From: Candidatus Moranbacteria bacterium CG06_land_8_20_14_3_00_40_12
GTDB taxonomy: Bacteria; Patescibacteriota; Minisyncoccia; Moranbacterales; UBA2206
DNA length: 64,000 nt
Assembly: GCA_002780175.1 (NCBI GenBank)
Contig: PEVT01000048.1
Coordinates: 8,754 to 72,753, forward strand
Direction of reading: 5' to 3'
In this document: piece after piece, positions 15,417 to 39,016 of the stretch
How positions within the stretch are numbered: position 1 is the first letter of the stretch
Layout: each line of letters starts with the position of its first letter
The notes under the pieces: model-generated
Databases searched by the model: none
Told to the model about the DNA's origin: nothing
Seen by the model: the letters and a program-made list of their open reading frames with translations, nothing else
Position numbers and translations under genes: made by a program

Positions 15417-15491
15417 AGCGGGGTAGAGTAATGGCAGCTCGTCTGGCTCATAACCAGGAGGTTGCAGGTTCGAATCCTGCCCCCGCAACCA
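15417..15491 (+). tRNA. tRNA-Met (CAU), initiator-like (fMet)
   Basis: A near-copy of E. coli tRNA-fMet: ...CTGGCTCATAACCAGG... T-arm GGTTCGAATCC. It ends CCCCCGCAACCA with an unpaired 1:72 position and an encoded CCA. Confidence 0.75.
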
Positions 15492-15620
15492 AGCTAAGCT
15501 TGGTTTAGGCCAGCTAAGCTGGCCAACCAAGAAACCAGGATTATTTTAGGTCAGCTAAGCTGGCCAACCAAGAAACTAAGATTATTTTAGGCCAGCTAAG
15601 CTGGCCAACCAAGAAATAAA
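15481..15620 (+). repeat. Tandem array of four hairpins (CCAAGCTAAGCTTGG, then 3x GGCCAGCTAAGCTGGCC at a 41-bp period)
   Basis: Seen directly. Three ~41-bp units (GGCCAGCTAAGCTGGCCAACCAAGAAAyyAgGATTATTTTAG). Sits between the tRNA and the GIY-YIG gene. No unique spacers. Confidence 0.6.
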
Positions 15621-15621
15621 T

Positions 15622-15894
15622 ATGTATTATGTTTATATACTGTTTAGTGAAAAAGATAAACAATTGTATATTGGCTATGCAGATGATTTAAAAGCTAGAT
15701 TTGAAAAACATAGCAAAGGATTTGTTCGCGCAACTAAATTTAGACTACCGCTGAAATTGATTTATTATGAAGCATATATAAAACAATCCGACGCTAAGCG
15801 TCGGGAAAAGTTTTTAAAAGGCGGAAAAGGTAGGGGTCAATTGAAGATTCAATTAAAAGATATTTTAGAGAAAGTGTGCTATAAAAACTTGTAA
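15622..15894 (+). CDS. Small GIY-YIG nuclease-domain protein (UPF0213/YhbQ-like)
   Basis: YYVYILFSEKDKQLYIGYADDLKARFEKH carries the GIY...YIG motifs. 90 aa. Confidence 0.75.
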   Translation: MYYVYILFSEKDKQLYIGYADDLKARFEKHSKGFVRATKFRLPLKLIYYEAYIKQSDAKRREKFLKGGKGRGQLKIQLKDILEKVCYKNL

Positions 15895-15988
15895 CGCCAA
15901 AATAGCTCAGATGGTTATCTAGCCTCGACTCGCGGAGGCGCTCGTTGACGCGAGGCAGGGAGCACGGGATTCACCCCCTCACCAAAAT

Positions 15989-16062
15989 GCCGGCGTAGCT
16001 CAGTTGGTTAGAGCGATGGACTCATAAGCCATAGGTCAGAGGTTCAAATCCTCTCGCCGGTA
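15989..16062 (+). tRNA. tRNA with CAU anticodon (elongator Met or lysidine-modified Ile2)
   Basis: GCCGGCGTAGCTCAGTTGGTTAGAGCG...CTCATAA...GGTTCAAATCC...CGCCGGTA cloverleaf. CCA is not encoded. Confidence 0.7.
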
Positions 16063-16241
16063 CGGCATTTTAGTGGAGGGGCGAGTAAGTCCGCCGACTG
16101 GCGGATCGAGAATTTTTCCCCCGTAGCGAACCGATTCTGCTACTGGGGTGAATTTCTCTCCTGGTACGAAAAAAATTAAAAATTAAAAAATCAAAATGTA
16201 AAATTTTTATTTTTGATTTTTACATTTTTCATTAATATATT

Positions 16242-16318
16242 GGACCGGTAGCTCAGTTGGTTAGAGCGTCTCCCTGTCACGGAGAAGGTCGCGAGTTCGA
16301 GTCTCGTCCGGTCCGCCT
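16242..16318 (+). tRNA. tRNA-Asp (GUC)
   Basis: GGACCGGTAGCTCAGTTGGTTAGAGC...TCTCC-CTGTCAC-GGAGA...GCGAGTTCGAGTCTCGT-CCGGTCC-G. The anticodon loop reads GTC. Confidence 0.8.
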
Positions 16319-20991: not shown

Positions 20992-23900
20992 ATGACAAAA
21001 ATCACCGAATCAAATATTGAAGAAATAGCCATTGAATTCTTGGAAGCGCAAGGCTATCAATATCTTTCACCTGAAGGGCAAGAAACGGAAAGAGAAAATT
21101 TAAGTGAGGTTGTTTTAAAAAAGCGCTTGAAAGATGCGATCAATCGGATTAATCCATACAAGCCGGAAGTTGTGCGCGAGCAAGCTTTCAAGGCAGTTTT
21201 TAATTTGGTTTCGCAGAATTTAATTGAAAGCAATGAAGAATTTCATCGGATGCTGACGGACGGAATTGACACCGAATTTTTAGCAGCGGATGGCATACGG
21301 GGAAATAAAGTTTGGCTGATTGACTTTGAGAATATCGAAAATAATGATTTCGTGGTTTGCAATCAATTTACGGTTAAGGAAAAAGAAGCGACGAAAAGAC
21401 CCGATCTTGTTTTGTTTGTGAATGGTTTGCCTTTGGTCGTGATTGAACTCAAAAATCCGGCGGATGAAAATGCGACGGTCAAAAAGGCTTTTATGCAACT
21501 CCAAAATTACAAAAATTTAATTCTGGCGCTTTTTAATTACAATGCGATTTTAGCGGCTTCGGACGGGTTGGATGCTAAAGCCGGATCGCTCACGGCCGGA
21601 TGGTCGAGATTTGCCGTTTGGAAAAATTCGGAAAATAAAAAGGAGGATAAAAAAACCGTTCCGCAATTGGAAACTTTAATAAAAGGGATGCTTCGTCCGA
21701 AAATTTTGCTTGATTTGATAAAACATTTTACCGTTTTTGAAAAAGCCAAAAAAAAAGATTCGGAGACGGGACAAGTTTTTGTGGAAACCGTGAAAAAAAT
21801 CGCGGCTTATCATCAATTTTACGCGGTGCAAAAAGCGGTTGAGTCAACGGAAAAAGCGGCGAGTGAGAATGGAGACCGGAGGTGCGGAGTAGTTTGGCAC
21901 ACGCAAGGATCCGGCAAATCATTGTCGATGGTTTTTTACGCTGGAAAGATTATTCAGAAACTGAATAATCTGACCATCTTAATAATTACGGATCGAAACG
22001 ATTTGGACGATCAGCTTTTTGATACTTTTGCGTCGTGCAAACAAATTTTGCGCCAGGACCCGGTGCAAGTTGAAAATAGAAATGATCTCAAGAAAAAATT
22101 AAAAGTTGCCGGAGGCGGAATTGTTTTTTCAACCATCCAAAAATTTATGCCCGAAGATGGAGGAGAAACTTTTGATTTATTATCTGACAGAAAAAATATA
22201 ATTGTGATCGCGGATGAAGCGCACCGGAGCCAGTATGGATTTAAGGGAAAAATTACATTTGCCGGCGGAGGCGCGCAACTCAAATACGGTTTTGCCAAAT
22301 ATGTGCGCGATGCTTTGCCAAACGCTTCTTTTATCGGATTTACCGGAACGCCAATTGAAACAACGGACAAATCCACGCCGGCGGTGTTTGGCGACTACAT
22401 CGATGTTTATGATATTCAGCAGGCAGTCAAAGATGGAGCGACCGTGCCGATTTATTATGAAAATCGGTTGGTAAAAGTGCATCTCAAAGAAGAAGATAGA
22501 AAAGAATTAGATGAAGTCGTAGATCAGATGACGGAAAAAGATGAACCGGTAGAAGCGGACAAGGCAAAAGCGAAATGGGCCAGAATTGAAGCGATTGTCG
22601 GCCAGCAGGAACGCTTGAAAGCAGTGGCGAATGATATTGTGGAACATTATGAAAAACGCAGCGAAGCGGTTGAAGGGAAAGCGATGATTGTGACGATGAG
22701 CCGCCGTATTGCCGTAGCTTTATGTAATGAAATTATAAAATTAAGACCAACATGGCAGAATCGCGCATTGGACAAAGGAACGATTAAAGTGGTAATGACA
22801 ACGACTATGACTGACCCGGCGGATTGGCAGGCGCATTGCACCACCAAAGAACAACGGCGAAAATTAGCGGACAGATTTAAGGATCCGAGTGATTCGCTTA
22901 AATTAGTGATTGTTCGGGATATGTGGCTGACCGGTTTTGACGCGCCTTGCGCGAAAGTAATGTATGTGGACAAGCTGATGCGCGGACATAATTTAATGCA
23001 AGCGATTGCCAGAGTGAATCGAGTTTATAAAGATATTAGAGGCGGTTTAATTGTTGATTATATTGGAATAGCGCGGGATTTGAAAAAAGCTCTGGCTGTT
23101 TATACGGAAAGTGGCGGGCAAGGAATTCCGACGCTAAATCTTTCTGAAGCCGCATCGACTATGCAGGAAAAATTTGAAATTATTGAGGAGATGTTTTCTG
23201 ATTTTAAATATAAAGATTATTTTTCAGCCGATATAAATCGAAAGATGCAACTCCTGCTTGAGGCGCAAGAGCATGTTCTTCAATTGCCTGATGGGAAGAA
23301 ACGATTCATTGAACACATTGAAACATTAATGCGATCTTATGCGCTGGTAGCGCCACGGCCGGAAGCAATGGCAATAAAAGAAGCGCTGGCCTTCTTTCAG
23401 GCTGTGAAAGTGCGGCTGGTTAAATTTGAATCTGCTGGCGGAAAGGGACGCGATTCGGAAGAAATTGAAACGGCGATTCGCCAGATTGTGGATAAAGCAT
23501 TAGCTTCAGAAGGCGTCATTGATATTTTCAGCGCGGCCGGAATCAAGAAACCCGATGTTTCTATTTTGTCCGAAGAATTTTTGGCCGAAGTAAGAGGAAT
23601 GGATCGCAAAAATCTGGCATTGGAACTCATGAAGAAGTTATTGAATAACGAAATTGATAGTATCAAAAGCAAGAATATAGTTTTGGGAAGAAAATTTTCA
23701 GAAATGCTGGACGATGTTTTAAAGCGCTACCAATCCAATATTTTAACTGCGGCAGAAATTATTGAAGAAATGATCGGTATGGCTCGAGAAATTCGAGGAG
23801 AAGGCGATCGAAAGAAAAAACTGGGTTTGGTAACGGATTACGAAGTGGCTTTTTATGATGCTCTGACTAACAACGCAAGCGCAAAAGAAGTTTTGAGTCA

Positions 23901-24117
23901 TGAAGTTTTGCGAGAGCTGGCTTGCGTTCTGGTAGACAAGGTAAAGGAAAATACATCTATCGATTGGACAATTAGAGAAAGCGCGCGGGCGAAATTGCGG
24001 GTAATGATTAAGCGGACATTGAATAAATTCGGTTATCCGCCTGATATGCAAAAATTGGCGACAGATTTGATTTTAAAACAAGCAGAATTATTCGCTGATG
24101 ATACTCTCAAAAATTAA
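20992..24117 (+). CDS. hsdR: Type I R-M restriction subunit HsdR (SF2 helicase/PD-(D/E)xK nuclease)
   Basis: N-terminal nuclease motif (FVNGLPLVVIELK), helicase motifs I (TQGSGKS) and II (VIADEAHRSQ), and a C-terminal HsdR domain. 1041 aa. Confidence 0.9.
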   Translation: MTKITESNIEEIAIEFLEAQGYQYLSPEGQETERENLSEVVLKKRLKDAINRINPYKPEVVREQAFKAVFNLVSQNLIESNEEFHRMLTDGIDTEFLAADGIRGNKVWLIDFENIENNDFVVCNQFTVKEKEATKRPDLVLFVNGLPLVVIELKNPADENATVKKAFMQLQNYKNLILALFNYNAILAASDGLDAKAGSLTAGWSRFAVWKNSENKKEDKKTVPQLETLIKGMLRPKILLDLIKHFTVFEKAKKKDSETGQVFVETVKKIAAYHQFYAVQKAVESTEKAASENGDRRCGVVWHTQGSGKSLSMVFYAGKIIQKLNNLTILIITDRNDLDDQLFDTFASCKQILRQDPVQVENRNDLKKKLKVAGGGIVFSTIQKFMPEDGGETFDLLSDRKNIIVIADEAHRSQYGFKGKITFAGGGAQLKYGFAKYVRDALPNASFIGFTGTPIETTDKSTPAVFGDYIDVYDIQQAVKDGATVPIYYENRLVKVHLKEEDRKELDEVVDQMTEKDEPVEADKAKAKWARIEAIVGQQERLKAVANDIVEHYEKRSEAVEGKAMIVTMSRRIAVALCNEIIKLRPTWQNRALDKGTIKVVMTTTMTDPADWQAHCTTKEQRRKLADRFKDPSDSLKLVIVRDMWLTGFDAPCAKVMYVDKLMRGHNLMQAIARVNRVYKDIRGGLIVDYIGIARDLKKALAVYTESGGQGIPTLNLSEAASTMQEKFEIIEEMFSDFKYKDYFSADINRKMQLLLEAQEHVLQLPDGKKRFIEHIETLMRSYALVAPRPEAMAIKEALAFFQAVKVRLVKFESAGGKGRDSEEIETAIRQIVDKALASEGVIDIFSAAGIKKPDVSILSEEFLAEVRGMDRKNLALELMKKLLNNEIDSIKSKNIVLGRKFSEMLDDVLKRYQSNILTAAEIIEEMIGMAREIRGEGDRKKKLGLVTDYEVAFYDALTNNASAKEVLSHEVLRELACVLVDKVKENTSIDWTIRESARAKLRVMIKRTLNKFGYPPDMQKLATDLILKQAELFADDTLKN

Positions 24118-25801: not shown

Positions 25802-27859
25802 ATGAAGAAAAAAAAGAAAATCGTGAAAAATTTAAAAGATTCTGAATATTCAGCTAAATCCATCCAGGTTTTGGAAGGCTTGGAACCGGTGCGCAAGCGC
25901 CCCGGAATGTATATCGGAGGAACCTCTTTGGAAGGTTTGCATCACTTAGTTTGGGAAGTAATCAATAATTGCGTTGATGAAGCCATGGCGGGTTATTGTA
26001 AAAATATTAGAATTTTTTTATTACCTGACAATGTGGTGGAAATTTCCGATGACGGGCGGGGAATTCCGGTGGAAAAACATCCGCAAACTAAAAAATCAAC
26101 TCTGGAAACAGTGTTGACGATTTTACACGCGGGTGGAAAATTTGGCGGCGGAGGCTACAAAATATCCGGAGGCCTGCACGGAGTGGGAGTATCGGTAGTT
26201 AACGCGTTAAGTGTTTGGCTGAAGGCGGAAGTCAGAAGGGATGGAAAAATTTACAGCATGGAATTTACCAGAGGCAAGTCCAAATCGAAAGATCCTAAAA
26301 TTGAAGGCAAAGCCCCAAATGCCGGAACCATTATTTCTTTTCAAGCTGATCCCCAAATTTTTCCCGAGATAAATTATAACTGGGAAAAAATCTTAAGTTA
26401 TGTCAGGCAACAGGCTTATTTAACTAAAGGCGTAAGCATCAAAGTTTTTGATAAAAGAAAAAAGCAGGAGGAAAAATCTTTCGGTTTTCTTTTTGACGGA
26501 GGACTAATCTCTTACATTAAATTTATTAACCGCGGCAAAGAAGTTAAGAATGAAACCCCTTTTTATATTGAAAAGGAAACGCAAGATTCCGTGGTGGAAG
26601 TGGCTTTGCAATATACCGATGGTTATAAGGAGCATGTTTTCTCTTTCGCGAATAATATTTTTACCTCCGAAGGCGGCACGCATGAAATCGGATTTCGCAT
26701 GGCTCTTACCCGGGTTATCAACGCTTACGCCAGAAAAAACAATATATTAAAAGAGAAAGAAGAAAATTTTATTTCCGAGGATTTGCAGGAAGGGCTTTCG
26801 GCGATCATTAGCGTTAAACTTAAAAATCCTCAATTTGAAGGCCAAACTAAAGCCAAATTGGGAAATAGCGAGATGAAAGGCCTTGTTTCCAGCATAACCG
26901 CCGAAGCCTTGGCGGAATTTTTGGAAAGTCATCCAATCGATGCTAAAAATATTTTGGCTAAATGTTTCTTAACGGCTAAAAGTCGAATTGCCGCCCGGGC
27001 GGCTAAAGACGCGGTTATTCGCAAGGGCGCCCTGGAGGGGATGACTCTCCCGGGAAAATTGGCGGATTGTTCTTCCAATGATCCCGCGGAGTCGGAGATA
27101 TACATTGTTGAGGGCGATTCTGCCGGTGGTAGCGCTAAACAGGGGAGAAACAGAAAATTTCAAGCCATTTTGCCTTTAAGAGGCAAGCTGGTCAATGTGG
27201 AAAAAACTACTTTGGATAAGGTGGTCAAATCCGATACCTTAAAACCCATAATTATCGCGCTGGGCGCCGGCATCGGAGATAGTTTTGATTTTTCCAAATT
27301 GCGTTATCACCGGATTATTATCATGGCGGACGCGGACGTGGACGGATCGCATATCCGGACATTGCTTTTAACTTTCTTTTACCGCTATTTTGAGGAATTA
27401 ATTGAAAAAGGCTTGATTTATATCGCTCAACCGCCCTTATATCGAATTCAGAAAAACAAGGAAGTTAATTATATTTACTCGGAAGAAGAGAAAAACATAA
27501 TGATAAAAGAAATGACAAATGACAAATTTCCAATGACAAATAAAATCCAAAATTCAAAATCCAAAAAAAGTGAAAATAAAAATGGGGAAGAAATTGTTAT
27601 GGAAACCGATGCGGAAGAAAGTGAAGAAAAAAAGATTGCGGGAATAAATATCCAGCGCTATAAGGGTTTGGGAGAAATGAATCCGGAACAACTTTGGGAA
27701 ACGACCATGGATCCGGAAAAAAGAATGATGCGGCGCATTACCATAGAAGACGCTGAAAAAGCCGATCGAATTTTTGATATTCTGATGGGAAATGAGGTGG
27801 AGCCCAGAAGAAGGTTTATTCAAACTCACGCCAAAGCCGTGTCCAATCTGGATATCTAG
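25802..27859 (+). CDS. gyrB: DNA gyrase / type II topoisomerase subunit B (GyrB/ParE family)
   Basis: GHKL ATPase N-terminus, TOPRIM motif EGDSAGGSAKQGR, and DxDxDG (MADADVDGSHI). A low-complexity insert lies near residue 560. 685 aa. Confidence 0.8.
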   Translation: MKKKKKIVKNLKDSEYSAKSIQVLEGLEPVRKRPGMYIGGTSLEGLHHLVWEVINNCVDEAMAGYCKNIRIFLLPDNVVEISDDGRGIPVEKHPQTKKSTLETVLTILHAGGKFGGGGYKISGGLHGVGVSVVNALSVWLKAEVRRDGKIYSMEFTRGKSKSKDPKIEGKAPNAGTIISFQADPQIFPEINYNWEKILSYVRQQAYLTKGVSIKVFDKRKKQEEKSFGFLFDGGLISYIKFINRGKEVKNETPFYIEKETQDSVVEVALQYTDGYKEHVFSFANNIFTSEGGTHEIGFRMALTRVINAYARKNNILKEKEENFISEDLQEGLSAIISVKLKNPQFEGQTKAKLGNSEMKGLVSSITAEALAEFLESHPIDAKNILAKCFLTAKSRIAARAAKDAVIRKGALEGMTLPGKLADCSSNDPAESEIYIVEGDSAGGSAKQGRNRKFQAILPLRGKLVNVEKTTLDKVVKSDTLKPIIIALGAGIGDSFDFSKLRYHRIIIMADADVDGSHIRTLLLTFFYRYFEELIEKGLIYIAQPPLYRIQKNKEVNYIYSEEEKNIMIKEMTNDKFPMTNKIQNSKSKKSENKNGEEIVMETDAEESEEKKIAGINIQRYKGLGEMNPEQLWETTMDPEKRMMRRITIEDAEKADRIFDILMGNEVEPRRRFIQTHAKAVSNLDI

Positions 27860-31435: not shown

Positions 31436-32160
31436 GGCAATACGTGTTAAATTTAAATAAATTAATTTTTTCCAGCCAATAAATGGTAGTGTCCAAGAAA
31501 TATTTTAAAAAGAAAAGCGGGTGAGTTTTTTGGTTTTTTTATTAAATGGATAAAAAAATTGGAAACCCGCGTAAGCGGTTTTTTTGTTTGTTTCTACCAG
31601 GTACTAATTACTAATCAAATACCTGCCTACCGGCAGGCAGGCTAATATACTAATAAATTAATTTTATTATTCGTATATTCGTAATAAATTCGTAATTCGT
31701 AAAGATTACAAGCATTACTTCGGAAACCAGTTTATATAACAAAAGATTAGGTTATATGCACACGTTTCCGCAGCAGCAGGACTTTAACAATTGAACAGGT
31801 CTTACTAAAATATTGGATTTCGAGCGCAAGCGGAAATTCGAATTGAATATTTTGGTTAGTCTTCCGGCATCTTCGCAATAAGATGCTGGAAATAGGTTAT
31901 CTTTGTTTTTATGAAGAAAAAACAAAGAAAATTGCAAATAACAAATGTAATTAGAAATTGTTAACTGCTAATTAATTCCGATCTTCTTATGATCGGAAGA
32001 TTCCTGTGAAAAATCAGGAAAAGTTTAAGGTAAGTTACTCAAATGCGTATGGTGGATGCCTTGACATTAAAAAGCGACGAAGGACGTAGCTGGCTGCGAT
32101 AAGCCCCGGGGAGTTGTTAAGCAAACTGTGATCCGGGGATTTCCGAATGCGATAACGCAA

Positions 32161-32350
32161 CCATTCTTCACTAACGTTCAGAATGAAATTTTAAAGACTA
32201 AATTTAAAATTTTAAATCAAATCTAAATGACTAAATTTTAAAAATTTAATCATTTGAAAATTTAAAATTCATTTAAAATTTATAATTTAAAATTGAAAAT
32301 TTACAGTTTTTGTAAATATAAAAGTTCTGAATATTAGCGAAGGATGGTTA
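32161..32350 (+). repeat. AT-rich expansion element in 23S domain I (copy 1)
   Basis: Starts CCATTCTTCACTAACGTTCAGAATGAAATTTTAAAGACTAAATTTAAAATTTTAAATCAAATCTAAATGAC. More than 90% identical to 32474-32600. Its terminal arms are imperfectly complementary. Confidence 0.7.
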
Positions 32351-32473
32351 TTCTTAGCTGAATTCATAGGTTAAGAAAGCGCACCCTGGGAACTGAAACA
32401 TCTTAGTACCAGGAGGAAAAGAAAACAATTGTGATTCCGTCAGTAGTGGCGAGCGAAAGCGGAATAGCCTAAA

Positions 32474-32638
32474 CCATTCTTCACTAACGTTCAGAATGAA
32501 ATTTTAAAGACTAAATTTAAAATTTTAAATCAAATCTAAATGACTAAATTTTAAAACTTTAATCATTTAAAAATTTAAAATTCATTTAAAATTTATAATT
32601 TAAAATTAAAAATTTCCGAGCAATAGCGAGGGATGGTG
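32474..32638 (+). repeat. AT-rich expansion element in 23S domain I (copy 2)
   Basis: Same element as 32161-32350. It is inserted ~130 nt further into the rRNA, after AGTAGTGGCGAGCGAAAGCGGAATAGCC. Confidence 0.7.
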
Positions 32639-32943
32639 TTGCGAGACAATCTTACTCGTTTAATCGGGACCGGTGAAAAATCATAGTGGAAAGCTCCTGG
32701 AAAGGACTGCCAAAGAAGGTGAAAGCCCTGTACATAAAATGATATTTTATCGGCGTGATTGCTCTCAAGTAAGACGGGACCGGTGAAATCCCGTCTGAAT
32801 CCGGGGCCACTATAGCTCCAAGGCTAAATATTTTTAATGATCGATAGCGAACTAGTACCGTGAGGGAAAGGTGAAAAGCATCCCGATGAGGGAGATGAAA
32901 TAGTATCTGAAACCATATGCTAACGAAGAGTCAGAGCCGTGCA

Positions 32944-33118
32944 TAGCACGGAAGCTCCAAATCCAAAATCCCAAATCCAAAATAAATCCCAAATCCAAAA
33001 TCCCAAAGTTTAAAACATTGGGTCATTGGAAAATTGTCTGGCTTTGCCAGACTTGGCGTAGCCAAGGAATTTGTTTGGAAATTGGAAATTGGAAATTGGA
33101 AATTCCGCGCTGTGCGCG
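32944..33118 (+). repeat. IVS-like insertion at 23S helix 25 (CCAAATCC/GGAAATTGG repeat arms, central GTCTGGCTTTGCCAGAC palindrome)
   Basis: It replaces the helix-25 loop between GAGCCGTGCATAGCACGGAAG and GCGCTGTGCGCGGTGATGGCGTGC. Arms are CCAAATCCAAAATCCCAAATCC... and ...GGAAATTGGAAATTGGAAATTCC. Confidence 0.7.
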
Positions 33119-33938
33119 GTGATGGCGTGCTTTTTGTAGAACGAGCCAACGAGTTAGTTCTGTGCGGCTGGATAAGCTACTTTCGTAGCGGATCCACAGT
33201 GAAAGCGAGGCTTAACCGCCGTTCGTTCGTATCATACTGCGTGTGATACTCACTTAAAATCAAAATTAAAAAATCAAAAATTAAAATTTTGGTATGCGCT
33301 TCGCGCATGACAATTATAGATAAGTAATTGTCGCGAAGCGACTCCTTAATTTTTCATTTTGATATTTAATTTTTAAATTTTAGCGAGTATCGAGCGTAGC
33401 GAGATACGAGCGATTGTCGTACGGACTAGACCCGAAGCCAGGCGAGCTATTTATGAGCAGGGTGAATTTGGAGTAAAATCCAAAAGAGGCCCGAACCCAC
33501 GAGCCGTTCAACACTCGGGGATGACTTGTGAATAGAGGAGAAATTCCAATCGAGCTTGGCGATAGCTGGTTCTTCCCGAAATAGCTTGAGGGCTAGTGTC
33601 TTTTAAATGAGCTTAAAAGGTAGAGCTACTGAATGAGAATTCGCGGTTCGCCGTAGGATTCTCAACCAAACTCCGAATTTTTAAGTTTCTTATTAGGGCA
33701 GTCAGAAATCCGGGTCTAAGCTCGGATCTCAAAAGGGAAAAAGCCCAGACCGCAATCTAAGGTCCCCAAATTTATGTTAAGTGGAAAAGGAGGTGAAGTT
33801 TCTTATACACCTAGGAGGTTGGCTCAGAAGCAGCCATCCTTTAAAGAGTGCGTAACAGCTCACTAGTCTAGAGACTTTGCGCCGAAAATTTAACGGGGCT
33901 AAACATAATACCGAAGGTGCGGGTCAGTGTTATGCACT

Positions 33939-34092
33939 GGAAATCCCAAATCCAAAATCCCAAATCCAAAATAAATCCCAAATCCAAAATCCCAAAGTTT
34001 AAAACATTGGGTCATTGGAAAAGTGCCTGCCTGCCGGCAGGCAGGGAATTTGTTTGGAAATTGGAAATTGGAAATTGGAAATTCCAGCGCGT
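33939..34092 (+). repeat. IVS-like insertion at 23S helix 45 (same arm element, central CCTGCCTGCCGGCAGGCAGG palindrome)
   Basis: Arms identical to 32944-33118. The central hairpin is swapped for the 20-bp GC palindrome at 34026-34045. Confidence 0.7.
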
Positions 34093-35261
34093 AGCGCTGG
34101 CGGTAGGGAAGTGTTCTCTGCGCAGCGAAGTCCACGATGTGAATCGGGATGGAGCGCAGAGAAGTAAGAATGTTGGCATGAGTAACCACAATACCGATGA
34201 AAACTCGGTACACCGAAAGTCTAAGGTTTCCTGGGCAATGACAATCATCCCAGGGTTAGTCGGGCCTAAGGCGAGGCCGAAAGGCGTAGTCGATGGACAT
34301 ACGGTTAATATTCCGTAACTTCAAAAATTTTCGATGGAGCGACGTATCTTTGTAGTTTTTGCGCATTATTGGATTTGCGTATTTAATTTGAGGGTGCTTT
34401 TCAGGCAAATCCGGAAAGTATCGCCCAAGAATTAGGTGGAATTCCGACGTAAGTCGGGAGAACAAAGGCGAGCAAGGTACCAGGAAAAACTTCTAAGATT
34501 ATGATTTTTGAATCCGTACTAAAACCGACACAGGTAGACTGGGCGAGAAGCCTAAGGTGAACGGATGAACCTTCGTCAAGGAACTCTGCAATACAACTAG
34601 ACGTAAGTTAGCAAGATGTCTTTCCTACACCACCTTGATTCTTTAGATTATTTTTTAATAAGGAATCAGAGTGGTGTAGGACACAGTAAAAAATTTCAAG
34701 CGACTGTTTATCAAAAACACAGGTCTCTGCAAACTCGCAAGAGGAAGTATAGGGGCTGACGCCTGACCAGTGCTGGAACGTTAACGGAAGCGGTGCAAGC
34801 CAATTCCCGAAGCGCCAGTGAACGTCGGCGATAACTATAATCGTCCTAAGGTAGCGAAATTCCTTGTCAGGTAAGTTCTGACCCGCATCAAAGGCGTAAC
34901 GACTTGAAAACTGTCTCGACGAAGAGTCCGGTGAAATTGCAATGGCGGTAAAGATGCCGTCGACCTGCAGCAAGACGAAAAGACCCCGTGGAGCTTTACT
35001 ACAACTTGGTATTGACTTAGAGTTTTAGTTGCCGAGCTTAGGTGGGAGGCTGTGAAGTCCCGATTCTGGTCGGGATGGAGCCAACAAGTGGAATACCACC
35101 CTGCTGATGTTCTAAGTCTAACCCTGGTCTGTTATGAGTCTACTAAGACGAATAACCATTGATGAACCAGAAAATATACTCAAATTGTTTAGTGTGTTTT
35201 TCATGGTTCAAAAATTTATTTAGTCTTAGTTATTCATACCAGACCGGGAACAGTGCCTGGT

Positions 35262-35294
<33 letters not shown>

Positions 35295-35455
35295 GGCAAC
35301 GGAGGCGTTTACAAAGGTTGGCTAGGTCCGGATGGAAATCGGACTGATAGTACAAAAGCATAAGCCAGCTTTACTGAAAGACCCATAAGTCAATCAGTCA
35401 CGAAAGTGGAATTTAGTGAACCGACCATCGCTCATAGGAGCGTGGAAGATCATCA

Positions 35456-35488
<33 letters not shown>

Positions 35489-35620
35489 CCTCCCAAGAGT
35501 CCACATCGACGGAGGGGTTTGGCACCTCGATGTCGGCCCATCGCATCCTGGGGGTGGAGAAGCTCCCAAGGGTTTGGCTGTTCGCCAATTAAAGCGGTAC
35601 GCGAGCTGGGTTCAAACCGT

Positions 35621-35903
35621 AAAACAGCTTTTAGCTATTAGCTTATAGCTTTTAGGTAAAGGAAATTTTACAGTTTGAATCCGAGGTAAAGACATCACAA
35701 GCGGCGGCTTTTAGTAGCAATATTAAAAGTGAAGCTAACTTATATCGGTAAAATCCCGAATTCTCGGGACAATACCGAGGGAATGGTTCGACTTTGCTCA
35801 CCATGAGCGATAAGAATCGACCCGTAGAGACTAAACGTTAGCCTTCCTGAATTTTAGGGAAGAATTTATAGTCCATACACGCAGTAATGCGTGAACCAGT
35901 ATG
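35621..35903 (+). ncRNA. Putative group I intron (283 nt) in 23S domain V near the peptidyl-transferase centre
   Basis: It interrupts GGGTTCAAACCGT | CGTGAGACAGGTTGG (E. coli GGGUUUAGAACGUCGUGAGACAG). The 5' exon ends in U and the insert ends in G. P7-like strands AGAGACTAAACG and TATAGTC sit ~60 nt apart. No ORF. Confidence 0.5.
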
Positions 35904-36099
35904 CGTGAGACAGGTTGGTCTCCTATCTGCTGTGGGCGTTTATTGCTTGAGAGGAGTCTTTTTTAGTACGAGAGGACCGAAAAGAACGAACCTCTGGTGT
36001 ACCAGTTGCATCGCCAGATGCACAGCTGGGTAGCTAAGTTCGGACTGGATAATCGCTGAAAGCATATAAGCGAGAAGCCATCCTCAAGATTAGGCAATG

Positions 36100-36290
36100 C
36101 CAATGCGTAGCATTGGAATAACCAATGACCAAGTACCAATGACCAATAAATTTCCAATGACCGAATGAACAATTTTTAAATTAAAAGTTTGATTATTGGA
36201 GTTTGGGATTTGAGATTTTTTTGGAATTTGGAATTTGGAATTTGGAAATTCCACTGCTATGCAGTGGCCGATTTCCTGGAAGATTACCAG
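36100..36290 (+). repeat. Expansion insertion in 23S 3' domain (helix ~98 region) with (GGAATTT)x4 and CCAATGACC repeats
   Basis: Sits between GCATATAAGCGAGAAGCC and GATAGGTCTCAGGTGTAAGT. Contains TTTGGAATTTGGAATTTGGAATTTGGAAATTCC. Confidence 0.6.
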
Positions 36291-36532
36291 GTCGCCGCGA
36301 GGCGAACCTCGCCAAAGCCGCAAGGCGGAGGCGGGTTGATAGGTCTCAGGTGTAAGTCCGGCAACGGATTAAGCCGAGAGATACTAATAAATTGAATTGT
36401 TACTTATCTTAAATTTTAATGACGCAGGCACATAGCAAATAACTTTGGGTTATTCGCTGTGGCCGCGTGTTGTTGGATTAGCAGTTAATAGTTTCTAATT
36501 TCGCGCTTTTTTTGATTTTAAACATATAATTC

Positions 36533-36647
36533 TTGGTGTCTCTAGCGAAGTGGCAACACCTGATCCCATTCCGAACTCAGCCGTTAAGCACTTCAGCACC
36601 GATGATACCCCGACATTATGTCCGGGGAAAGTAGGCCGGTGCCAAGA
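36533..36647 (+). rRNA. rrf: 5S ribosomal RNA
   Basis: TTGGTGTCTCTAGCGAAGTGGCAACACCTGATCCCATTCCGAACTCAGCCGTTAAGCACTTCAGCACCGATGATACC...GGCCGGTGCCAAGA. It lies ~120 nt after the 23S gene. Confidence 0.85.
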
Positions 36648-36852
36648 ATTATGTGTTTAAAAAGGGCGTGGTTTTTTATTGGTCGCCGTCCGTTTATTTC
36701 GGATATGTTTCATAAAATCAAAGCATTTTCGTATAATTTTAAAAACTTCAAAATTACTGGATCTGGTTTAACATCAAAACCTTCGCGTTTTTTTTGTTTA
36801 TTCCGCGCCTTTTTACGCCAAGCGCGGACCTTAAAAAACTCATTAAAATCAT

Positions 36853-37924: not shown

Positions 37925-39016
37925 ATGGTAAAAATTTTAAAATTAGACTGGTTGATGCTGGTAGTGGCGCTGCTTCTTTTGACGATTGGGCTGGCCGCTC
38001 TTTACAGCGTTTCTTTTTCAAGAAATGAATTTAATTCAGAATATTTTGTAAAGCAAATAATCGCTATTCTCATCGGAATAGGAATAATGTTTCTTTTGGC
38101 TTTATATGATTATCGCGCTTTTGGTTTTTTCAGCACCAGACTTTATCTGATTACGGTCTTAATTTTATTTGGAGTTATTTATTTCGGAGTTGAAGCTAGA
38201 GGCACTACGGGCTGGTTTGGGATCAGCGGTTTTAACTTCCAGCCGGTGGAATTGACCAAATTGGTCATGATAATTTTTTTGGCCAATTTTCTGTCTAAGA
38301 AAAAAAACGAATTGAGTATTTGGGTTAAGATTTTTTCTTCAACCATTTTGATTTTTATCCCCGTTTTTCTTATTTTAAAACAACCGGATTTCGGCTCGGC
38401 GATTATTATTATTGGAATTTGGCTGGGTATGTTTTTAGTTAGCGGTATCGATAAAAAAAATTTAATCATTTTTGTTTCAATTATACTGGTGGCGTTTTTT
38501 TCCAGCTGGCTTTTTTTAAGGGATTACCAGAAAGATAGAATAAAAAATTTCATCAATCCTTATAATGATCCCCGGGGCAGCGGATATAATGTTATTCAAT
38601 CAATAGTAGCGGTGGGTTCTGGAGGGGTTTGGGGAAAAGGCCTGGGTCATGGTTCGCAGAGCCAGCTTAATTTTCTGCCGGAAAAACATACGGATTTTAT
38701 TTTTGCCGCTATCGGAGAAGAACTGGGTTTTTGGGGCAGCGCGCTAGTTCTGGGACTTTTCGGAGTATTGCTTTATCAAATGAAAAATATCGCCCGTTTC
38801 GCCAGGGATAATGTTGGCTATCTGATGTCGGTCGGAATCATGATAATGTTTATTTTGCAAATTTTTATTAATATCGGAATGAATATCGGCATCGCGCCGA
38901 TTGCGGGAGTTCCGTTGCCGCTGTTGAGTTACGGAGGCAGTTCCATTATTATTATGTTAGCGTCTTTGGGCATCTTGCAAAGCATTTATATCAGAAAGAT
39001 AAAAACTCTTGACTAA
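37925..39016 (+). CDS. SEDS-family peptidoglycan glycosyltransferase (FtsW/RodA)
   Basis: Ten TM helices. Conserved SEDS motifs (GSGYNVIQSIVAVGSGGVWGKGLGHGSQ; PEKHTDFIFAAIGEELGF). Confidence 0.85.
   Translation: MVKILKLDWLMLVVALLLLTIGLAALYSVSFSRNEFNSEYFVKQIIAILIGIGIMFLLALYDYRAFGFFSTRLYLITVLILFGVIYFGVEARGTTGWFGISGFNFQPVELTKLVMIIFLANFLSKKKNELSIWVKIFSSTILIFIPVFLILKQPDFGSAIIIIGIWLGMFLVSGIDKKNLIIFVSIILVAFFSSWLFLRDYQKDRIKNFINPYNDPRGSGYNVIQSIVAVGSGGVWGKGLGHGSQSQLNFLPEKHTDFIFAAIGEELGFWGSALVLGLFGVLLYQMKNIARFARDNVGYLMSVGIMIMFILQIFINIGMNIGIAPIAGVPLPLLSYGGSSIIIMLASLGILQSIYIRKIKTLD

Follow-up and report, generated by a model that had tools for sequence, protein, structure and literature searches.

A compact group I intron without an open reading frame at site 2593 of a Patescibacteria 23S rRNA gene, with a co-varying segment complementary to the upstream exon

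We found that the 23S rRNA gene in the analyzed stretch of DNA (64,000 nucleotides, hereafter the window) is interrupted in its peptidyl-transferase region by a compact insert that bears the complete, covarying core of a group I intron, encodes no protein, and contains a guide sequence complementary to both exons. As a whole, we hold with high confidence that this insert is a self-splicing group I intron lacking an ORF. In addition, a second segment of the intron, upstream of the guide, is complementary to the 5′ exon and covaries with the host rRNA. We refer to this second pairing as the exon clamp.

The host gene is a full-length bacterial 23S rRNA gene at 32028 to 36411 on the forward strand (Rfam RF02541, 2257.8 bits), which extends to 4384 nt because of its many inserts. 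Genes of this kind are mis-handled by rRNA gene callers and amplicon surveys, the 23S gene here being 4.4 kb. A 5S rRNA gene lies 3′ of it at 36532 to 36647, and the same Rfam run revealed no 16S rRNA gene in the 64-kb window. The 23S-5S pair stands alone as a single locus, and it contains the only 23S gene seen here. In its surroundings we noted gyrB (25802 to 27859) and a TPR protein upstream, and FtsW (37925 to 39016), ribosomal protein L25 and an EPSP-synthase-family (PF00275) gene downstream; the window also holds a type I restriction R subunit at 20992 to 24117, and two tRNA-Met genes and one tRNA-Asp gene at 15417 to 16317. A protein of the window is also encoded on contig PCRU01000008.1 (GCA_002771255.1) and on three JGI groundwater metagenome contigs.

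A MAFFT alignment against E. coli rrlH placed the insert exactly after U2593, and the same insert appeared in the Rfam LSU alignment, with 289 nt where the model has 6. The two alignments agree on the insert of 283 nt at 35621 to 35903 that a sequence-only reading of this DNA had proposed. That reading had also put the insertion within a few nucleotides of the 2593 homing site; the site was right, but the offset was wrong, as the insertion falls exactly at 2593. The exon context is GGGUUCAAACCGU / intron / CGUGAGACAG, and the junction between U2593 and C2594 lies within the peptidyl-transferase center, at the 5′ base of the loop that caps helix 93. The upstream exon ends in U (35620) and the insert ends in G (35903), in line with the splice-site rule for group I introns, as had been pointed out before. 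Since the intron sequence is identical in four independent assemblies (L001 to L004), we ruled out an assembly artefact.

When the region was searched by itself, the Rfam Intron_gpI model (RF00028) matched 35686 to 35894 at 51.8 bits, above the gathering score of 50, with E values of 2e-12 and 2e-11. The intron was absent from the Rfam listing of the whole 64-kb window at the gathering threshold, an omission probably due to speed filters. On the Rfam score alone, the group I call is marginal. We did not adopt the Rfam placement of the first hairpin (35690 to 35710), which contains many non-canonical pairs, and preferred an internal guide sequence followed by P2. Group II domain models gave no match at E values up to 1 in 31900 to 36700. 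Every helix of the P3 to P9 core could be placed, and the P7 that had been put forward as a candidate proved to be real: intron nucleotides G207 and G209 to A213 pair with U249 to C254, and A208 is bulged (35827 to 35833 with 35869 to 35874). The P7 pattern GACTAAA-N15-45-ATAGTC occurs once in the 64 kb, versus 0.01 occurrences expected by chance.

Relatives were collected by scanning GTDB species genomes with a pattern that combined both strands of P7 with the 3′ exon, which yielded at least 119 loci, all from Patescibacteria/CPR genomes. At least 103 complete L2593 introns of 233 to 715 nt were extracted, all similar in sequence to the window intron; since the P7 motif and compactness of the 3′ domain were prescribed by the pattern, the family sample is biased. 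From 12 compact members, including the window intron, we built a covariance model of the core (R1, P3 to the 3′ exon), and the 5′ domain was analyzed apart from it by scripts. R1 had a sole match in the window, the intron, whose 150.3 bits (seventh best of 121) are high by construction in a seed member, while the scores of the non-seed relatives are not.

In the 121-sequence alignment, 93.2% of the pair cells were standard, versus 35 to 44% when the partners were slid by 1 to 3 columns. Changes on both sides were found for 37 of the 42 core pairs, and none of 500 shuffles reached the observed pairing values. Covariation was seen at every pair of P3, P4, P5, P8, P9.0 and P9. P6 and P7 are nearly invariant and hence uninformative in this respect, the P7 motif being fixed by the scan pattern. 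A terminal G was present in all 104 introns, that is, the window intron and 103 relatives among the matches listed. Together with the RF00028 match, this covarying core supports the earlier interpretation of the insert as group-I-like. We conclude that it is a group I intron, and one that very likely splices itself. The intron and its helices are as follows, with numbering within the intron in parentheses.

35621 to 35903, + strand: whole intron, 283 nt, at L2593; alignments; identical in L001 to L004
35708 to 35716 with 35721 to 35729 (88 to 96/101 to 109), + strand: P2 hairpin with the GNRA loop GCAA at 35717 to 35720; MFE folds
35734 to 35739 (114 to 119), + strand: P3 5′ strand GCUAAC, pairing with 35837 to 35842; 6 of 6 pairs change on both sides, 94% paired
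35745 to 35750 with 35773 to 35778 (125 to 130/153 to 158), + strand: P4; 98.6% paired, all pairs covary
35754 to 35759 with 35764 to 35769 (134 to 139/144 to 149), + strand: P5; 81.6% paired, all pairs covary
35779 to 35781 with 35821 to 35823 (159 to 161/201 to 203), + strand: P6, GGG with CCC; nearly invariant
35785 to 35818, + strand: P6a/P6b, the position of the LAGLIDADG ORF in relatives (blastn and ORF scan)
35827 to 35833 (207, 209 to 213), + strand: P7 5′ strand GAGACUA, with A35828 bulged; 99% paired; pair of the G-binding site
35837 to 35842 (217 to 222), + strand: P3 3′ strand GUUAGC, 3 nt after P7
35843 to 35848 with 35857 to 35862 (223 to 228/237 to 242), + strand: P8 hairpin; 6 of 6 pairs covary, 84% paired
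35869 to 35874 (249 to 254), + strand: P7 3′ strand UAGUCC
35875 to 35877 with 35900 to 35902 (255 to 257/280 to 282), + strand: P9.0; 3 of 3 pairs covary
35878 to 35883 with 35888 to 35893 (258 to 263/268 to 273), + strand: P9 with the loop GUAA at 35884 to 35887; 6 of 6 pairs covary, 99% paired
35903 (283), + strand: omegaG

J4/5 and J5/4, in the P4-P5 region (35745 to 35778), are A-rich, and relatives have GNRA loops on P2 at the same place. The core is tightly spaced: 3 nt separate P7 from P3′, P8 follows P3′ directly (0 nt), and P7′ comes 6 nt after P8. Because P3′ begins only 3 nt after P7, there is no P7.1/P7.2.

The sequence-only reading had been unable to place P1 or the internal guide sequence, which we located at 35700 to 35707. 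The elements of the 5′ domain and the exon strand that it contacts are listed below.

35608 to 35617, + strand: exon strand of the clamp, GGGUUCAAAC, nt −13 to −4 (E. coli about 2581 to 2591), complementary to 35673 to 35682
35621 to 35669, + strand: hairpin starting at +1, AAAA 35621 to 35624 with UUUU 35666 to 35669; MFE fold, TRF
35670 to 35672, + strand: triplet ACA opposite exon CGU, with A opposite U(−1), C opposite G(−2), and A mismatched with C(−3)
35673 to 35682, + strand: exon-binding segment a′, GUUUGAAUCC, pairing with exon −4 to −13
35700 to 35707, + strand: internal guide sequence AGCGGCGG, directly 5′ of P2

An internal guide sequence that forms both P1 and P10 is the textbook arrangement (PMC3984707). 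The guide AGCGGCGG is complementary to the ligated exons CCGU/CGU, with a G·U pair at the splice site. P1 comprises 4 bp in the window, between GCGG (35704 to 35707) and exon CCGU, including G35704·U35620, and P10 comprises 3 bp, one of them a wobble, between GCG (35701 to 35703) and the 3′ exon CGU (35904 to 35906). The family consensus CACGGCGG was found exactly in 90 of the 104 introns (relatives from the matches listed), again directly 5′ of P2; it can pair with the whole of the ligated exons CCGU/CGUG, including a single G·U, and within it CACG is the partner of the four bases that open the 3′ exon. U(−1)·G was present in 100 of 101 family members, where the P10 positions were 97 to 100% paired. 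Since the exon bases of P1 and P10 are invariant, covariation cannot test the guide, and its assignment draws on conserved complementarity and position. The single variant exon (L124, AACGU) is accompanied by an unchanged guide. The sister introns L2500 and L1951 of related 23S genes likewise have, shortly before the core, a guide that is complementary to both of their exons; in L2500 it precedes P2. Because the U·G wobble comes from AGCGGCGG, we consider that this guide would form the catalytic P1.

Upstream of the guide, every member of the family has the segment a′ in the form (A/G)U(C/U)UGAA(C/U)C. Among 101 introns, clamp pairing was 98 to 100% from −12 to −5 and lower at the ends (87% at −4, 65% at −13). 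At exon position −6 (E. coli 2588), 66 hosts have G and 35 have A, and a′ position 3 follows this base, with G:C in 65, A:U in 35, G:U in 1 and no mismatch (Fisher 2e-26). As the state of exon −6 changed at least 17 times on an NJ tree of the intron core, this covariation is not a single inherited change. The hairpin that starts at +1 is also maintained in the 101 introns, positions +1 to +4 being paired in 88 to 92%, with 3 to 6 pair types each, versus 46 to 58% in slid controls. Between the two helices, U(−1) is faced by A in 81 introns, G in 13 and C in 7 (A or G in 93%), and G(−2) by C in 93 and U in 6 (C or U in 98%); the base opposite C(−3) can pair in 10% and is mismatched in 90%. The variable loop of the +1 hairpin contains a heptamer tandem repeat (35626 to 35655), AGCTTTT × 4.3 (TRF), and relatives carry other short repeats in this loop, such as AAAGTTNATAAAGT in L045, L070 and L080, the same habit as that of the hairpin inserts in the rRNA gene.

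The clamp, the ACA triplet and the +1 hairpin together form one long hairpin that contains the splice site, and this is the MFE fold of the exon plus the 5′ domain (z = −5.5). The long hairpin and P1 share exon −4 to −1, and the two pairings cross; either they would alternate, or the upstream nine pairs would persist alongside P1 in a pseudoknot. In no intron is the linker that joins the clamp to the guide shorter than 16 nt, and by our own geometric estimate this length is enough for the clamp and P1 to coexist. A search by eye found no consistent pairing partner for the conserved linker sequence GAGG...GACAUCA. In 80% of the introns, the long hairpin places the splice-site U opposite A, an unreactive arrangement, and it is on this ground that we view the hairpin as a competitor of P1. 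The clamp may act as an exon tether, as an inactive alternative to P1, or as both.

Taking these elements together, we propose the following course of splicing. The P3 to P9 core would fold around the guanosine pocket in P7, and the guide at 35700 to 35707 would pair with the last four exon bases into P1, with its G·U wobble at the 5′ splice site, where an external guanosine would attack. The same guide would then align the 3′ exon through P10, P9.0 would set the terminal G35903 in the pocket, and the exons would be joined, restoring GGGUUCAAACCGU-CGUGAGACAG. Segment 35673 to 35682 would pair with the upstream exon and, with the +1 hairpin, build one long helix that contains the splice site. 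The clamp would hold the 5′ exon and could offset the 4-bp P1; extended over the splice site, with U paired to A, it would be an inactive alternative to P1.

We tentatively propose, with the odds against it, that in this family the 5′ exon is recognized by two partners, the guide and a clamp of 9 to 10 nt that faces peptidyl-transferase-center nucleotides 2582 to 2591 and tracks the host rRNA, which compete for the splice-site bases as a conformational switch or aid reverse splicing. If so, the 5′ splice site would be buried in a U-A pair of the long hairpin, which would also retain the helix 93 strand, and rearrangement of this hairpin to the guide would trigger splicing, coupling removal of the intron to folding of the ribosome's catalytic center. 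Alternatively, the clamp would provide high-affinity targeting of an ORF-less intron for reverse splicing into intron-less 23S rRNA. With the clamp, a ribozyme of less than 300 nt would possess a second guide that is natural and programmable by sequence. Designers of trans-splicing ribozymes could draw on it, and it makes the coordination of splicing with large-subunit folding directly testable. By eye, the same two-partner layout was observed in four compact CPR L1931 introns (L124:2354-2603, L083:966-1250, L018:1818-2095 and L078:2969-3184, oriented coordinates), with a hairpin at +1, a segment (G/A)GGACUGUU complementary to exon AACGGUCCU, and a remote guide GCUGCCU before a GNRA-capped P2; in L078, the splice-site U would be faced by A of the guide instead of G.

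U·G at the cleavage site of group I introns is close to universal and functionally important, which bears on whether the long exon/intron hairpin, rather than the CACGGCGG-type motif, is the real P1, with splicing at U-A (80%) or U·G (13%). Its layout is exactly that of a P1, with an exon strand, the splice site and an intron stem from +1, it covaries strongly, and it dominates the MFE fold. However, it is the guide motif that sets G against the splice-site U in 100 of 101 introns; this motif is also complementary, in register, to the 3′ exon and lies just 5′ of P2 as in L2500, whereas the hairpin departs from the usual U·G and leaves C(−3) mismatched in 90% of cases. We therefore regard the hairpin as an unlikely P1 and retain the guide in this role.

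The insert might also derive from a group I intron that no longer splices itself, being kept in the mature 23S rRNA or needing a host or intron-encoded protein that is absent here. The lack of a maturase or endonuclease ORF, the short P1 and P10 of this copy and the marginal Rfam score speak for this, and a precedent is cited in the literature, the bacterial 23S group I intron L1931 of Simkania, reported to stay unspliced (PMC11270868). Nevertheless, all core helices are intact and kept by compensatory changes in the family, omegaG, P9.0, the G·U pair and the guide are conserved, the window intron is among the best family scores (150 bits), and a retained insert would split helix 93 of the peptidyl-transferase center in the only 23S gene seen. 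Loss of splicing is in our view quite improbable. At least eight hairpin inserts occur in this gene, including two at the classical sites H25 and H45, and a long duplex can form between the 5′ exon and the intron, as would suit an intervening sequence (IVS) that is cut out by RNase III without re-ligation and leaves a fragmented 23S rRNA. Such an IVS would be a simple extended hairpin that replaces the tip of a variable helix (H9, H25 or H45), a description that suits other inserts of the gene, but the present insert lies in the loop of H93, has a multi-helix fold with a complete covarying group I core, and combines U...G boundaries with a guide that spans both exons. Furthermore, 23S rRNA is not known to be fragmented within helix 93. 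We give excision of this kind hardly any credence, and self-splicing by the group I core remains our reading.

In agreement with the earlier statement that the insert encodes no ORF, an ORF scan found none longer than 50 aa overlapping it. By comparison, a LAGLIDADG gene of the I-CreI type lies in P6 in 4 of the 104 introns among the matches listed (L015, L019, L021 and L055; 708 to 715 nt), as an ORF of 150 to 173 aa. The L055 protein matches I-CreI/I-MsoI over its full length (E about 1e-25), endonucleases that we take to cut the intron-less 2593 site. Instead of an ORF, the window intron has a 39-nt P6a/b, which is common to the ORF-less L013 and L058, so we consider it a stable ORF-less form. 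It most likely descends from an L2593 intron carrying an I-CreI-type endonuclease and either lost the gene or never gained it. The L021 ORF (intron nt 185 to 640) encodes the same protein as that of L055, both introns being 712 nt, except for LAGFLDGYGS versus LAGFLDGDGS. The second Asp of the LAGLIDADG motif, replaced by Tyr in L021, is presumably the catalytic acid, and the L021 endonuclease is probably dead.

Intron-less 23S genes with an identical 38-nt 2593 target were present on at least 120 metagenome contigs (L125 to L244). The names of some of these contigs belong to the JGI Ga0210xxx series, as do those of the contigs with the window's copies, so occupied and empty sites coexist in these communities. 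Among the intron-less alleles listed by a metagenome junction scan, none was of the same species, the best candidates being 90 to 93% identical to this 23S gene.

In Tsurumaki et al. (2024, J Bacteriol), group I introns at site 2593 of CPR 23S rRNA genes (“23IS12”) are described with or without LAGLIDADG_1 (PMC11270868). There, 45% of CPR 23S inserts are group I introns, 222 are ORF-less, 2593 is a recurrent site of LAGLIDADG_1, similarity among the 2593 introns is high outside the ORF, and CPR rRNA inserts are removed from transcripts (PMC11270868). The “23IS12” introns so described share phylum, gene, site and Rfam model with the window intron (PMC11270868), which is a fresh member of an already catalogued type (CPR L2593) and one more annotated example of the abundant rRNA introns of Patescibacteria. 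The accession of the window's assembly was not found in the supplement of that study, and a term search of the article found no description of P1/IGS or of an exon-binding segment (PMC11270868). Our literature search, whose incomplete coverage makes it weak evidence, likewise found no prior description of an L2593 P1 or exon clamp. The co-varying clamp is the sole feature for which no published description was found, and we consider it modestly interesting.

Outside the CPR, the closest comparison is with IA-type L2593 introns of cyanobacteria and chloroplasts, among them the Chlamydomonas chloroplast Cr.LSU intron, which we take to encode I-CreI and to share the insertion site. Like the window intron, they follow U2593, and the endonuclease of its ORF-bearing relatives belongs to their I-CreI/I-MsoI family. 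The cyanobacterial L2593 introns (Synechococcus C1/C9, Thermosynechococcus) have a P7.1/P7.2 extension of about 65 nt and a full-length endonuclease gene (PMC1995217), whereas the window intron has neither P7.1/P7.2 nor a LAGLIDADG gene. The predicted build of this ribozyme differs from the described cyanobacterial type, in a family whose scan could find compact 3′ domains only.

In its architecture the window intron may resemble the small bacterial tRNA introns of the Azoarcus/Anabaena type (IC3), with which it would share compactness, GNRA-capped P2 and P9, no P5abc, P9.0, and the J6/7-P7 motif GUAGAGACUA(A/G)ACG. Tandem C-G pairs in P5 and P8 could receive both tetraloops. The window intron differs from that type in that its host is an rRNA, not a tRNA, and its 5′ domain, with the exon clamp, is much larger. 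Engineered trans-splicing ribozymes use extended guides, and the Tetrahymena intron has an alternative pairing of P(−1) and P1. Both are similar to the present case, in the pairing of the substrate beyond a guide of 4 to 6 nt and in an alternative helix that competes with P1 for the strand of the 5′ splice site. However, the engineered guides are artificial and pair with bases downstream of that site, and P(−1) is a hairpin formed by exon strands only. The clamp, by contrast, belongs naturally to the intron, finds its partner upstream of the splice site and changes in step with the host rRNA.

In domains IV-V of related Patescibacteria 23S genes (loci L087, L043, L072, L062, L106, L124, L083, L018, L078, L056, L101 and L089), the number of large inserts reaches four or five. 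They follow about Ec1931, 1951, 2263, 2449, 2500, 2532 and 2593 or lie between 2594 and 2657, and many of them match R1. In the 23S gene of the window, we noticed at least seven further inserts, at 32176 to 32348, 32476 to 32615, 32937 to 33105, 33226 to 33414, 33943 to 34101, 35136 to 35238 and about 36117 to 36247. They form long near-perfect hairpins (MFE z of −3.6 to −10), most of whose arms are 7-nt tandem repeats (TAAAATT; AAATCCC/TTGGAAA; AATGACC/TTTGGAA), and they gave no Rfam group I or II match. Two of the hairpin inserts occupy the classical IVS sites H25 (Ec539) and H45 (Ec1185). Further, there are two pairs of near-identical copies, 32159 to 32302 versus 32472 to 32615 (141 of 144 nt, after Ec147 and Ec274) and 32946 to 33110 versus 33934 to 34090 (147 of 155 nt, after Ec539 and Ec1185), which suggests that a hairpin element was recently duplicated, transposed or converted inside one rRNA gene.
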